The notes under the pieces: model-generated
Told to the model about the DNA's origin: nothing
Seen by the model: only the letters and a program-made list of their open reading frames with translations
Database searches by the model: none
Program-made: the position numbers and the translations under genes
Source of the DNA: Akkermansiaceae bacterium
GTDB taxonomy: Bacteria; Verrucomicrobiota; Verrucomicrobiia; Verrucomicrobiales; DEV007
Assembly: GCA_024233085.1 (NCBI GenBank)
Contig: JACKQC010000020.1
Span: 35,884-99,883, forward strand
Direction of reading: 5' to 3'
Length of the DNA: 64,000 bases
In this document: one piece after another, positions 7,639 through 62,352 of the stretch
How positions within the stretch are numbered: position 1 is the first letter of the stretch
Layout of the letters: each line of letters opens with the position of its first letter

Positions 7639-7786
7639 GGTGGGGCGAAGCGTCCCCGCTGAGCCGTCGCTTGCCTGGGTGGTTTGCGACTCGGTCCCGC
7701 CCCCGCTCTCCGGTGTCGTGGGCATTTTTTTGGAGGAAGTCCGCGCGGGACACCTCGACGGCTCGGCCGGGACGCCTCGCCCCACC
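7639..7786. repeat. IR-bounded intergenic element, short copy (family of 54968..55268 and 57325..57652)
   Basis: Left IR 7639..7669 is GGTGGGGCGAAGCGTCCCCGCTGAGCCGTCG. Right IR 7757..7786 is CGACGGCTCGGCCGGGACGCCTCGCCCCACC. About 28/31 positions are complementary. The element lies between divergent genes. Confidence 0.65.
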
Positions 7787-53975: not shown

Positions 53976-54533
53976 TCAGATTTCCCGTGGAGTAAAGTAT
54001 ATAGCCTCTACGGGAGCAAACCTCTCTCGTCCTCGAAGCAACCGCACGGCATACACCAACGATCGATGGCTTCCATCACCGTGGCTGAGGGTGTACGTCG
54101 AACCCGGATCCAGGCTTTGGTGCTCATTTTTGAGGTCTGTTACAACGATCGGTGAAAGGCGGGATACATCAAAGTTCTCAGCAACAGGAACGCAAGGTCG
54201 AAACCATTTTGGTTTGTGCAATTGCTCATCTAGAGAAGGCTCCGAAGCCAATCTTTCAAAAGTATAGCCGTTTTCGCGAATTCGTTCAGCCACTGATCTC
54301 AGAGAATGGCTCCCATGTTTTGGAACGATGATTTCATTTTCTCGATGAATTGGCTGAACTGTAATCTCGAGGAATTCATCGATCTTTTCGAATTGAAGCC
54401 ACTCCAATTTCCGTGGCGGTGACAGCCTTTCCTTGATGCCTTTCCCGAAATTGCGTAGCGCCCTCAATTCCCCCATACAGAGAAGCCGTTTAATCTCTTC
54501 ATACGTTGTCACACGACGCTTCATATAATTCAC
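53976..54533 (-). CDS. Hypothetical protein with C-terminal ParB/Srx-like motif (low-GC island)
   Basis: 185 aa. Markedly lower GC than the flanks. SPIVVTDL...STYTLSHGDGSHRSLVYAV resembles the ParB N-terminal/sulfiredoxin-fold 'DG-x-HR' box. A purine-rich stretch precedes the ATG. Confidence 0.5.
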   Translation of the reverse strand: MNYMKRRVTTYEEIKRLLCMGELRALRNFGKGIKERLSPPRKLEWLQFEKIDEFLEITVQPIHRENEIIVPKHGSHSLRSVAERIRENGYTFERLASEPSLDEQLHKPKWFRPCVPVAENFDVSRLSPIVVTDLKNEHQSLDPGSTYTLSHGDGSHRSLVYAVRLLRGRERFAPVEAIYFTPREI

Positions 54534-54791: not shown

Positions 54792-54858
54792 GATTCAACC
54801 CTGTTTGGTCCCCAATCCAACAGGGTCAGGTCCGGGACCCAACAGGGTTGGGTCGACA
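54792..54858. repeat. REP-like hairpin cluster (3 units)
   Basis: TTCAACCCTGTTTGGTC, ATCCAACAGGGTCAGGTC and GACCCAACAGGGTTGGGTC. The last is a perfect 8-bp stem. Confidence 0.7.
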
Positions 54859-54967
54859 TGGGGGCCGGAAGGGGGCAAATCCCGGTTACTCATGGCCGTG
54901 CCGTCGGGCGCGTCGTTCGCGAGGAGGGGCAGTCTCCCCATTCGCGTCAACTTGACGAAATCGAAGC

Positions 54968-55268
54968 GCTCAAAGGACCGATCCAGTGCCGGCTTCCGCC
55001 AACGGTGGGGAAAAGGCGCACGGCGGCAGCCGGGTGGGGCGAGGCGTCCCGGCCGAGCCGTCGCGATGCCCCGCCGCGTCCGTCCCGCCCGATCCCGCCC
55101 TCGAAACCATCCGCGAAAGAGAAACCGGGAGAGTCCGGGCTCCAACGGATGGCCAGAGGACGTCCGACGCTTTCGGGCCTCACGACGGCTCGGCCGGGAC
55201 GCCTCGCCCCACCCACCCATCCATCGCCGCGGAATCGTGGCTCCGTGATTTTGTCTCATCCTCCCGCG
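54968..55268. repeat. IR-bounded intergenic unit, copy A (candidate invertible element)
   Basis: Perfect 31-32-bp inverted repeats at 55033..55063 (GGTGGGGCGAGGCGTCCCGGCCGAGCCGTCG) and 55183..55213. The 119-bp core lies between them. The outer flanks are colinear with copy B (57325..57652). Confidence 0.75.
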
Positions 55269-55451
55269 TTCAGGGCGACGCCGATGGAGGCGGTTTCCAA
55301 CCGCCCGCAGAGCCAGCGCAGGCGCTTGGAAAGTGTATCTCTTGGATTTCCACCGCCCTCCGATGCGCCAAACTCGCTCCAGCCCCGTTTTTGGCGGAAA
55401 GGACGGTTTTGGATCGGAAATCGGCGCCGAACTTCGGGAAAAATCGATTTT

Positions 55452-55795
55452 CCCACAGGAAAAACCATTTTTCCCATGGGGTTTGGCGTTGTTCCCATGG
55501 GGTTTGGCGTTGTTCCCATGGGGTTTGGCGTTGTTCCCATGGGGTTTGGCGCTGTTCCCATGGGGTTTGGCGCTGTTCCCATGGGGTTTGGCGCTGTTCC
55601 CATGGGGTTTGGCGTTGTTCCCATGGGGTTTGGAGCAATTCCCATGGGTAGCGCCGCAATTCCCATGGGGTTTGGAGCAATTCCCATGGGGTTTGCTGAA
55701 AAACCCACGGGGTTTGAGGCCATTCCCATCGGGTTTGCGGCAAAACCCGCGGGGTCGGCGGCTTTTCCCGGAGGGTTGACCGTCATTCCTCCCGG
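55452..55795. repeat. 21-bp tandem array (~16 units) with phased CCCATGGG palindromes
   Basis: Perfect CCCATGGG occurs at 55473+21n for n=0..10. Degenerate cores occur at 55452, 55704, 55725, 55746, 55767 and 55788. The core TTCCCATGGGGTTTGG is conserved and the 8-nt spacer varies. Confidence 0.85.
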
Positions 55796-55861
55796 ATCAC
55801 GGGCTTTTCCCGCGGGGACTGCGGGCGATCGTGGCCGGAATTCGGCCGCCCGAGCGGCGAT

Positions 55862-56371
55862 TCAGGCGGGCGGAAGGCCGCCCACGAGCCGGCGCAGGAA
55901 AATGCCGGCGCCGAGACAGGAAAAGCTGACGAAGGCGCCGACAACCATGGGCAGCCAGAGCTGCTTGTCGGAATAGATCTCGGCGCTCTTCGGGCTGCCG
56001 GGCACGTGGATGACGCGGACGCTGTCGCCCGCCTTCAATTCGTGGCCGAAGGTGCTGGTGGTCACGAAGTCGAAGGGCTCGGCGCCCTCGGGGGCGCAGT
56101 GCACGTGGAGTTCGTGGGTGATGCTGGCCCGGCTCCGCTGGCCGTAACTGTCCATCGATTCGCCCGGTTTCCGGGAGCCGCCGCCGCCGTAGGTGACCCG
56201 GGTGGTGACTTCGGTCACCGCGCCATCGATCACCTGACCGAGGACGACGAGGCGAACCTGGTTCCAGAGCAGGGCGCCGAGGAAAAAAACGCCGGCCGCG
56301 AGCAGAATCCAGCCGAGCGCGGAGAGGCAGCCGCGATTTTTCTGAAGGGCGTGGTTCGAGTTCACAGGCAA
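55862..56371 (-). CDS. DUF3592-like membrane protein
   Basis: 169 aa. N-terminal TM (LSALGWILLAAGVFFLGALLW), a beta-rich middle and a C-terminal TM, which is the DUF3592 layout as remembered. Confidence 0.55.
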   Translation of the reverse strand: MPVNSNHALQKNRGCLSALGWILLAAGVFFLGALLWNQVRLVVLGQVIDGAVTEVTTRVTYGGGGSRKPGESMDSYGQRSRASITHELHVHCAPEGAEPFDFVTTSTFGHELKAGDSVRVIHVPGSPKSAEIYSDKQLWLPMVVGAFVSFSCLGAGIFLRRLVGGLPPA

Positions 56372-57324: not shown

Positions 57325-57652
57325 GCTCAAAGGGTCGATCCCGTGTCGGCTCCCGCCAAGGGCCGAGGATAACGCGAACGGCGTCAGCCGGGTGGGGCGA
57401 GGCGTCCCTGCCGAGGCGTCGTGATGCCAGATCGCATCGACATTTTTCGGCCATTCGACTGAGCCCTGGCTTTTGGTCTTTTTTCCTTCGCGGCTGATTT
57501 CACGGACGGGATTGGGCGGGACGAACGTGGCGGGGCCTCGCGACGGCTCGACAGGGACGTTTGCCTTCGGCGATCTCCGCTGAGTTTCGGTTCGCCCCAC
57601 CACTCCATCGCTCCGGAATCGTGGTCCCGCCATTTTGGCTCGTCCTCCGGCG
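57325..57652. repeat. IR-bounded intergenic unit, copy B (core inverted relative to copy A; right IR interrupted)
   Basis: Left IR at 57391..57421. The right IR is split into 57541..57559 and 57591..57601 by a ~31-nt insertion. The core is the reverse complement of the copy A core, while the flanks are colinear. Confidence 0.7.
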
Positions 57653-60912: not shown

Positions 60913-61112
60913 GAGAGCGGGAGAGCGGGAGAGCGGGAGAGCGGGAGAGCGGGAGAGCGGGAGAGCGGGAGAGCGGGAGAGCGGGAGAGCGGGAGAGCGG
61001 GAGAGCGGGAGAGCGGGAGAGCGGGAGAGCGGGAGAGCGGGAGAGCGGGAGAGCGGGAGAGCGGGAGAGCGGGAGAGCGGGAGAGCGGGAGAGCGGGAGA
61101 GCGGGAGAGCGG
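60913..61112. repeat. Perfect 8-bp microsatellite (GAGAGCGG)x25
   Basis: Counted directly: 25 uninterrupted units. Intergenic, between the propeller gene start and the IS200-like element. Confidence 0.9.
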
Positions 61113-61296
61113 GCGGGTGCCGGCAGGGAGATTCGATCCCGGAGGCATCGCCCCTGATCCCGGAGGGATCGCCCATGAATAGCCGGGAGTCGAAGACTCC
61201 CGGAACTCCCGGAACCACCGGTTCGCCCGGAAAACCCCGGAGGGGTTGACCATGGGGATGTCGCGCCGACCGAGCCGACCGAACTCAGCGAGACCA

Positions 61297-61782
61297 TCAC
61301 GGAAGAAATTCCGGCTTCCACTCCAAATGAGCCGCTTCGACAAGGCGTTTCAATTCGGCCACAAAATCCTCGCGATCGGACATCGCGCCGCCCGCGTGGT
61401 GAGCTTCCTGGTTTTTGATGTAGTCAATCAGGGCCGGACGCGCCTCGGCCGCGACAGTGAAGGCGCCATATCCCTCCTGCCAGAAATCGAAGCGTGGAAA
61501 CACCCCTTTGCCTTTGATCCAGGCGGAGGACGCGGTCTTGATCTCCTTCACCAGATCCGCCAGCGCAATGGTGGGATGGAGAGAAGTGAGGATGTGGAGG
61601 TGATCTTCAATGCCGCCGATCCGGTAGAGGTGACATTGCCGATTTTTGAGAATCCCCCAGATGAATCGATAGAGGTCGTCGCGCCGGGATTTTTCGAGGA
61701 CGGGAGCCCGGTGTTTGGCGCCAAAGACGATGTGATAGGTGATGTCCGTGTAGGTGGCATGGGAAGAGGATAGGACAATCAC
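61297..61782 (-). CDS. IS200-like Y1 (HUH) transposase / REP-associated tyrosine transposase-like protein
   Basis: ORF 61297..61869, with a GTG at 61782 proposed as the start. YHIVFGAKHRAPVL, HUH motif DHLHIL, WQEGYGAFTV, and the catalytic-Tyr region LIDYIKNQEAHH. Confidence 0.75.
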   Translation of the reverse strand: MIVLSSSHATYTDITYHIVFGAKHRAPVLEKSRRDDLYRFIWGILKNRQCHLYRIGGIEDHLHILTSLHPTIALADLVKEIKTASSAWIKGKGVFPRFDFWQEGYGAFTVAAEARPALIDYIKNQEAHHAGGAMSDREDFVAELKRLVEAAHLEWKPEFLP

Positions 61783-61924
61783 AGCGCAATGGGCAACCCC
61801 AGGTTGTTTTTGGGTCGGACGCGGCCCCGGTCGATGACCCCGGTATTCCGGGTGATCCTCCGGGATCAATTTGGTGCCAGGCTTTTGGTTTTGAGTTTGA
61901 GGATTGCGGATGGCGAGATCTGCC

Positions 61925-62066
61925 CGGCTTTGGCATTGGCTTGGCTGTGGCTGGCTGGGCTGTGGCTTGGCCTGTTTGCTGCTGGGCTGTGGTGTAGCTT
62001 GTTGGCTGTGGCTGTGGCTGTGGCTTTGGCTTTGGCTTTGGCTTTGGCTTTGGCTTTGGCTTTGGG
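61925..62066. repeat. Hexanucleotide microsatellite (TGGCTG/TGGCTT)n
   Basis: About 11 clean units at 62002..62066, preceded by degenerate units from ~61925. Lies upstream of the transposase start, inside the element. Confidence 0.8.
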
Positions 62067-62352
62067 CCTGTGCGGCTCAATGTGGCTCTCAGAGACTTGG
62101 TCGGGCTCGGTTCGATTGTCCCATTCCGCCCCTCGGAAAACCGATCTCGGAGGGATCGCCCATGAATAGCCGGGAGTCGAAGACTCCCGGAACGAAGACT
62201 CCCGGAACGAAGACTCCCGGAACTCCCGGAACTACCGGTTCGCCCGGAAAACCCCGGAGGGGTTGCCCATTGGGGATGTCGCGCCCTTTCCATGGCGTGG
62301 ATGCGCGGACTTTTCTCGCCAAATCCCGCCCAACTGCGGCCATCTTTTTTTC

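Follow-up and report, generated by a model that had tools for sequence, protein, structure and literature searches.

A phased 21-bp palindrome-cored repeat array in an intergenic spacer of an Akkermansiaceae genome

The array and its genomic setting

A 64,000-nucleotide stretch of the genome of an Akkermansiaceae bacterium (contig JACKQC010000020.1, positions 35,884 to 99,883; hereafter the window) was analysed for the identity of a phased array of 21-bp repeats, each centred on the 8-bp palindrome CCCATGGG. The array lies within a 1.3-kb repeat-filled spacer between two minus-strand genes, and the features of this spacer are as follows.

53976..54533, minus strand: low-GC (47.5%) open reading frame (ORF) of 185 aa, from a family of ~175-aa proteins with the motif FYIxDGxHRSLVLA
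55436..55474, unstranded: left boundary of the array, with two A/T-armed palindromes, GGGAAAAATCGATTTTCCC (55436-55454) and GGAAAAACCATTTTTCC (55458-55474), and the first in-register unit, TTCCCACAGGAAAAACCATTT, at 55450-55470
55471..55701, unstranded: homogenised centre of the array, 11 x 21 bp, each unit with a perfect CCCATGGG core, consensus TTCCCATGGGGTTTGGCGYTG
55702..55827, unstranded: six degenerate units in exact register, which retain TT/AA-CCC...GGG, the remainder being scrambled
55862..56371, minus strand: native gene for a 169-aa membrane protein, with G+C at third codon positions (GC3) of 0.86; called as a 166/167-aa gene in two other assemblies, L121 and L130

An initial annotation of the window had described about 16 units with eleven perfect cores 21 bp apart, and a further palindrome just upstream at about 55435..55453. 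The array is real and slightly longer than that estimate. The window contains 12 copies of CCCATGGG, where chance would give 1.45, and the motif count confirmed 11 perfect cores in exact 21-bp steps from 55473 to 55683; the upstream palindrome was found as the first of the two at the left boundary. Tandem Repeats Finder delimited the segment 55471-55695 (period 21, 10.7 copies, 91% matches, 0% indels), with a weaker degenerate extension rightward to about 55762-55769. When the 21-bp register was held fixed, 18 head-to-tail units could be followed without an indel from 55450 (TTCCCACAGGAAAAACCATTT) to 55827 (TTCCCGCGGGGACTGCGGGCG), made up of one A-rich boundary unit, 11 near-identical units and 6 progressively degenerate ones.

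The string TTCCCATGGGGTTTGG is exact in nine units and carries one mismatch in one unit and two in another, and the unit at 55639 departs from it. The variable part of the unit comprises positions 16-21, which read GCGTTG in three units, GCGCTG in three and GCGTTG in one, followed by AGCAA-type units, so that the identical central units stand in blocks of 3+3+1. Two of the degenerate units carry an alternative palindrome, CCCGCGGG. Within this genome the motif search covered the 64-kb window, where one further match to TTCCCNNGGG was found outside the array, which is below chance, and no further copy of the unit.

The right part of the array (55661-55860) was recovered in two independent short-read assemblies, L121 and L130, at 99.5-100% identity. 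Since these right-hand 200 bp are reproduced in both, the array is not an artefact; the count of identical central units comes solely from the source assembly. Sample L130 carries a 1-nt deletion (CCCC to CCC) at about 55754 (about 1650 in L130), in a C/G run of a degenerate unit, which moves the two outermost units out of the 21-bp register. The short-read contigs of the same species all break at dispersed repeats of the spacer, described below, or within the array (at 55661).

About 35 nt separate the last recognisable unit of the array from the stop codon of the 169-aa gene. The closest relative found (L123-L125, with an FG-GAP protein 72% identical) has a 162-aa gene in place of the 169-aa gene, followed immediately by a convergent gene, and has no spacer, no ORFan and no array. 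In the window, the FG-GAP protein encoded beside the array shows 100% identity to H7A52_15700, from a 115,711-bp contig of a metagenome-assembled genome of an Akkermansiaceae bacterium. Other repeats in the window belong to two dispersed families of repetitive extragenic palindromic (REP) elements and to the surroundings of a transposase gene.

54796-54852, unstranded: 22-bp doublet of a dispersed REP family, CCAACAGGGTTGGG
55032-55080 and 55166-55214, unstranded: inverted pair of a second, GC-rich dispersed REP family, GGGGCGAGGCGTCCCGGCCGAGCCGTCG, with 49-nt arms
61297-61869, minus strand: Y1_Tnp transposase gene (IS200-like, possibly REP-associated; Pfam E=3.8e-23), 5.5 kb to the right of the array
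60913-61113, 61926-62065 and 62178-62223: three microsatellite arrays around the Y1_Tnp gene, located by repeat detection

Other copies of the GC-rich family lie at 7642, 7756 and 57394 (7642-7783; 57394-57421). Its copies usually form inverted pairs about 90-120 bp apart, which yield spurious ORFs containing 'LGRDASPHP'. The CCAACAGGGTTGGG family is represented by 13 copies at six loci of the window (5498, 11024, 23346, 30779, 40604 and 54817), almost always as two or three copies spaced 21-22 bp, and these doublets and triplets are a small-scale analogue of the 21-bp array. On either side of the Y1_Tnp gene lie direct repeats of about 120-130 bp (61135-61270 and 62143-62290), together with perfect or near-perfect arrays of 8 bp (GAGAGCGG, x25), 6 bp (GGCTKT, x23) and 15 bp (CGAAGACTCCCGGAA, x3). 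A kinship between the degenerate unit at 55765 (CCCGGAGGGTTGACC) and the Y1-flanking REPs was considered and dropped, the local alignment score being 25 against a null maximum of 24.

The presence of tandem arrays of several periods in the window indicates that this genome makes and tolerates such arrays in non-coding DNA. It had been pointed out that 21 bp corresponds to two helical turns, which would place all palindromes on the same side of the helix. The geometry is correct, but it does not discriminate between explanations of the array, because the same genome also has dispersed REPs spaced at 22 bp, as well as perfect arrays of 8-bp and 6-bp units; periods close to two helical turns are not peculiar to the array.

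Coding potential, the 185-aa ORF and replicon context

Two long open frames run through the array.

55256-55786, minus strand: open frame of 176 aa with NPMGTAP repeats
54858-55976, plus strand: open frame of (PMGFGVV)n, which traverses REP elements and extends into the adjacent gene, itself on the opposite strand

Since the period is divisible by 3 and both frames are open, the array could be read as a gene for a protein of heptad repeats, with (NPMGTAP)n encoded by the minus strand or (PMGFGVV)n by the plus strand. Pro-x-Gly is retained in the degenerate units, and coding-looking 21-bp repeats of the MNPMG type occur in other bacteria (L005, L047, L054). We regard this explanation as extremely improbable, for the array has none of the compositional marks of the genes around it. 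Its coding score is negative in all six frames (-0.16 to -0.60 bits per codon, against +0.30 to +0.62 for the 18 confident genes of the window), and GC3 is flat at 0.54-0.64, compared with 0.8-0.9 for the window genes. Mismatches to the consensus unit are distributed over the codon phases as 29/31/21, without 3-periodicity, 31 of the 81 changes falling at third positions. The synonymous fraction of unit changes was 17-36% in every frame, in a comparison that lacked discriminating power, the putatively coding arrays used as controls having too few changes.

Further evidence is specific to each frame. The only Shine-Dalgarno-like GGAGG ends 1 nt ahead of an ATG. A search of 5.8 billion proteins gave no homologue of the 176-aa product at E<=0.001, and Pfam gave no match to it; the 1-nt deletion in the natural sample L130 lies within the ORF of this product and would shift the reading frame. 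The plus-strand ORF crosses the REPs of the spacer and overlaps a gene on the other strand. In a related array family (L143/L149), each unit carries a TAG stop codon in both Pro-Met-Gly frames. The array is not translated as a conserved protein, and gene callers should leave it unannotated as a gene. The initial proposal that the variation, which does not fall at every third position, reflects selection at the level of DNA or RNA is supported by the codon phases, the negative coding score, the L130 deletion and the lack of homologues; likewise, its description of the region as gene-free holds in the sense that each ORF across the interval scores negative for coding.

The same annotation had proposed that the array might be an iteron- or centromere-like site for the 185-aa protein, in which it had noted a ParB-like box. 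The low-GC ORF was probably acquired horizontally. Its product has no match in Pfam, NCBIfam or PADLOC and no sequence match in the PDB, and a word-indexed search returned only one close relative. An exhaustive HMMER search recovered a family of 93 representatives, mostly of about 175 aa and sharing the FYIxDGxHRSLVLA motif, the profile of which has no match in the PDB or Pfam. AlphaFold modelling gave a mean predicted local distance difference test (pLDDT) score of 93.5 with the family alignment and 31 from the single sequence. The best PDB neighbours of the model in Foldseek are N-terminal domains of ParB/Spo0J, at E=0.94-3.7 and a template modelling (TM) score of about 0.25 (top 0.27); as this match is insignificant, the ParB-like box is a lead and not a result.

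No tandem repeats or arrays are present at the loci of the 185-aa homologues (L134, L195, L196/L197), and conversely the family profile found nothing in the six-frame translations of 68 other array-bearing loci. At L196/L197 the homologue directly follows an N6_N4 DNA methyltransferase gene and lies near an AbiEii-like gene with a faint Pfam match (L196 2692-4543). This neighbourhood suggests that the family may be a defence or restriction-modification accessory rather than a partition protein. With no significant ParB match, homologues without arrays and arrays without the protein, a link between the 185-aa ORF and the array is not supported.

The surroundings of the array are also those of ordinary chromosomal DNA. 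By Pfam annotation, the 9 kb to the left hold metabolic and housekeeping genes, and the ORFs to the right, scanned to 61869, encode FG-GAP and PQQ beta-propeller proteins, one protein without a Pfam match and the Y1 transposase; neither segment yielded a Rep or Par gene. Neighbours of the array include GCV_T, prolyl isomerase, SGL, esterase, YebC, FG-GAP and PQQ beta-propeller genes. BLAST gave no match among PLSDB plasmids or INPHARED phages for the array or for a synthetic array of the ancestral unit described below, and no IMG/VR viral contig matches the pattern of either.

The array resembles iterons in consisting of direct repeats (18 x 21 bp) in the iteron size range of about 17-22 bp, and partition sites in having phased repeats with dyad symmetry. 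The F plasmid sopC consists of 12 x 43 bp, and parC of R1/pSK41 of 10-20-bp tandem repeats. As in these systems, many direct repeats of about two helical turns are phased, each has an internal dyad, and a moderately A+T-richer stretch lies at one end. In contrast to them, the array has no adjacent parA, parB, parR or rep gene and stands in a chromosomal housekeeping context. The cognate Rep gene that adjoins iterons on a plasmid or phage replicon is absent here, as is the linked, co-occurring operon for a ParA/ParM NTPase and a centromere-binding protein; nor does the array match any plasmid, phage or viral sequence searched, or co-occur with the 185-aa protein, which is not demonstrably a ParB. 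The array is tied neither to the 185-aa ORF nor to a replicon. A replication origin was also considered, in view of what we take to be a loose resemblance to a DnaA box at 55447 by our own comparison, and was dropped, since there is no skew switch at the array.

Similar arrays and the boundary unit

A strict pattern of two exact units was absent from the JGI metagenomes and IMG/VR. The looser pattern TTCCCATGGG-N11-TTCCCATGGG matched 60 metagenomic loci, among them long 21-bp arrays in several lineages. The following groups were distinguished.

L138, L150/L160 and L163: GC-rich contigs with FG-GAP and sulfatase neighbours; unit TTCCCATGGGGTTGGCTCAGA, embedded in REP-like sequence
Three different loci: rhizosphere lineage of GC 0.5; unit TTCCCATGGGCTAGATCATTT, 14-23 units
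L144/L151: lineage of GC 0.44; 21-bp arrays

Similar arrays are interspersed in these genomes: two metagenomic lineages each have same-core arrays at no fewer than three unrelated loci. The array lineages have no flanking gene in common; where the neighbours are readable, an array is found shortly after a gene's 3' end or between convergent genes. One of these arrays varies in copy number: L150 (130-306) and L160 (765-975) are the same locus in two samples, with 8 and 10 units, respectively. The amplified core is not always palindromic, being TTCCACTGGGG at L150/L160 and CCCCCATGGCC at L181, and in L149-type arrays the boundary units retain the A-rich remainder of the unit rather than its core. 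At L151 (1096-1642), 27 units with a perfect 21-bp period lie between convergent TonB-dependent-receptor and accD-like genes and the register is held through three quite different unit types.

The metagenome search fixed a 10-nt core, and by a rough estimate a search of such a collection with any 10-mer would turn up a few long arrays of 21-bp period. Arrays with CCCATGGG cores and many other periods exist as well: a loose scan for three CCCATGGG cores with gaps of 4-34 returned at least 120 loci, most of which encode Pro-Met-Gly repeats and have a period divisible by 3. At L165 (478-1320) the same core, TTCCCATGGGAA, recurs in a long satellite of 21-bp period; this contig is eukaryotic, as judged by an ORF resembling a retrotransposon integrase, and was left out of the bacterial comparison; the core alone therefore does not define a bacterial family. 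In the literature searched, TTCCCATGGG is described as a repeat in no paper. An occurrence of CCCATGGG in a paper on a CsoR operator was rejected as a coincidental flank within an oligonucleotide.

The first in-register unit at the left boundary, TTCCCACAGGAAAAACCATTT, looks like an ancestral form of the unit. In register, this unit and the boundary unit of the rhizosphere family have in common an exact 16-nt string, ACAGGAAAAACCATTT (empirical p about 0.001). This suggests descent from a unit resembling TTCCCATGGGAAAAAYCATTT, in which each period would contain two dyad axes. The comparison points to a history in which each lineage would have amplified its own variant of a unit near TTCCCATGGGAAAAAYCATTT.

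Possible origin and role of the array

We favour, with moderate confidence, the interpretation that the array is a non-coding minisatellite related to REP elements and bacterial interspersed mosaic elements (BIMEs), that is, a bacterial variable-number tandem repeat (VNTR), located just downstream of the 169-aa gene in an Akkermansiaceae chromosome. A satellite had been listed among the alternatives in the initial annotation, and it is preferred here on account of the identity of the units in blocks (3+3+1), the decay at the edges and the absence of the array from the closest relative. Minisatellites are head-to-tail repeats of 10-100 bp in non-coding DNA, and the array has this organisation. 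Their variation in copy number has its counterpart in the 8 and 10 units of the related L150/L160 locus, and the short-read contigs of the window species stop at the array.

From these features we infer the way in which the array arose, the form of its ancestral unit and the lack of a dedicated function. The array would have been seeded behind a gene's 3' end by a short pair of A/T-armed hairpin palindromes, whose unit resembled TTCCCATGGGAAAAAYCATTT. Blocks of a GC-richer variant, TTCCCATGGGGTTTGGCGYTG, could then have been amplified through replication slippage or through unequal recombination of adjacent units, while older units decayed at the right edge. The 21-bp period would have been inherited from the seed unit and not selected for a partner protein encoded nearby. 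The most likely effect of the present-day array would be structural, exerted by hairpins that form in the upstream gene's 3' untranslated RNA or by phased, bendable DNA. Structural effects of this kind have been proposed for REP elements.

Several observations weigh against a purely neutral satellite. In the seven diverged units, positions 3, 4, 9 and 10 (CC...GG) are invariant, and the arms have 12% mismatches and the remaining positions 54% (Fisher p about 1e-6, and likewise with G/C positions alone), a contrast subject to some ascertainment bias, since degenerate units were recognised partly by their arms. The dyad is preserved in the two degenerate units with CCCGCGGG. A register kept over 18 units here and 27 in L151 is not obviously expected of a satellite under no constraint, and arm conservation together with the kept register fit selection for a phased dimer-binding site. 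The similarity of the boundary unit to those of unrelated genomes hints at a shared constraint or a mobile origin, beyond local slippage alone.

Retention of the CC/GG arms by the degenerate units makes a phased protein-binding role a serious candidate, although we consider it doubtful. In this explanation the array would provide phased cis sites for a DNA-binding dimer whose gene lies in another part of the genome, such as a nucleoid-associated, ParB/Noc-type or ribbon-helix-helix-type protein. With one dimer on each CCCATGGG dyad, all dimers would share a face of the helix and might either form a polymer or wrap the DNA, as at sopC, parC and the lambda-ori iterons. The exact 8-bp palindromes and exact 21-bp spacing without indels over 18 units are consistent with such sites, as are the invariant arms and the kept dyad in units that are otherwise scrambled and the recurrence of the same core and period in several bacterial lineages. 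The palindrome of the putative ancestral unit, TTTTCCCATGGGAAAA, also resembles what we take to be the size and the T-rich/A-rich arm style of ParB-family sites.

The wider comparison is less favourable to a binding array. No DNA-binding, Par or Rep gene lies nearby, no flanking gene is common across the array loci, and the motif occurs only once outside the array in the 64 kb. Related arrays have amplified the non-palindromic cores of L150/L160 and L181, and L149-type boundary units have kept the A-rich remainder in preference to the core. The L130 deletion shifts the register of the outermost units, no plasmid, phage or viral contig matched, and the number of arrays found is within chance for any 10-mer, by an order-of-magnitude estimate. 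If a binding role were true, the array would be a new cis element with a trans factor, in a family of phased, palindrome-cored arrays conserved across lineages. An extension of this idea, which we judge unlikely, is that the array belongs to a previously undescribed, interspersed double-dyad 21-bp family with an ancestral unit near TTCCCATGGGAAAAAYCATTT and several loci per genome, distributed over Verrucomicrobiota-like and other lineages, in which the phasing would be kept by a widely conserved dimeric protein or by spread of a mobile unit.

The position of the array behind a co-oriented gene raises the further question of a role as RNA, which bears on the following feature.

55436..55467, minus strand: terminator-like hairpin with T-run, the only one found by a consensus scan on this strand between the 169-aa gene and the 185-aa ORF

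If this site is used, the array would form the 3' untranslated tail of the 169-aa gene mRNA. The array might accordingly act as a minus-strand 3' tail of ~400 nt, or as a small RNA ending at 55467-55436, in which neighbouring CCCAUGGG palindromes pair into a string of hairpins that blocks 3' exonucleases or offers about 16 GGGAA motifs to an RNA-binding protein. REP elements protect mRNA from 3' exonucleases. The array begins ~35 nt past the stop codon and the terminator-like site stands at its far end; TTCCC, or GGGAA in minus-strand sequence, is better preserved than any other part of the unit, in 16-18 of the 18 units; and related arrays with readable neighbours also follow closely on gene 3' ends. 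The predicted folds of both strands are much stronger than those of shuffled sequences (z = -6.2 and -6.8), but a strong fold, equal on both strands, follows automatically from repeated palindromes.

The number of terminator-like sites in the region equals the shuffle expectation (4 against 3.9), a consensus scan of the region found no promoter-like site, and an Rfam scan of the window returned only a tRNA and no match at the array. The orientation of the array relative to the upstream gene varies between loci. Sponge RNAs of the CsrB/RsmZ type provide no better model, as the GGA motifs lie in the stems, not the loops, of the predicted folds, and there is a terminator-like site at one end only, besides the missing Rfam match and promoter. 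A function as RNA is in our view very unlikely.

The minisatellite interpretation can be placed among known systems. Intergenic minisatellites and REP clusters are known kinds of element, and the unit of this array and its possible relatives are absent from the literature searched. The REPs and BIMEs of Enterobacteria and Pseudomonas, which are linked to Y1 transposases (REP-associated tyrosine transposases, RAYTs), are, like the array, short, clustered, non-coding intergenic palindromes near gene 3' ends; two clear dispersed REP families are present in the spacer of the array, and a Y1_Tnp gene is 5.5 kb away. In contrast to REPs, which form alternating pairs, the array is strictly head-to-tail with 18 copies. 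The REP stem-loop is an imperfect palindrome of about 20-40 nt, whereas palindromes of 17-19 bp are found only in the boundary units, the main-unit palindrome being only 8 bp and pairing only with that of a neighbouring unit. REPs also have dispersed copies; here the 64 kb hold one further TTCCCNNGGG and no further unit, with related families at at least three loci in other organisms, and the similarity of the array to the Y1-flanking REPs is marginal.

Mycobacterial interspersed repetitive units (MIRUs) and other VNTRs offer a second comparison. Like the array, they are tandem units of tens of bp in chromosomal intergenic spacers, with several loci per genome in related families; the related L150 and L160 differ in copy number, and the array has an identical centre with decayed edges. 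MIRU units are roughly 50-100 bp. The unit of the array is shorter, at 21 bp, and unlike theirs is built on a perfect palindrome; copy-number variation and multi-locus spread are known from the related arrays and not from the window genome.

If the array is such a minisatellite, the locus breaks short-read assemblies and would make a good VNTR for strain typing in this Akkermansiaceae lineage. The locus also shows the presence of REP-type repeat systems in uncultured Verrucomicrobiota: besides this minisatellite, there are two families of dispersed REPs and a Y1 transposase flanked by microsatellites.

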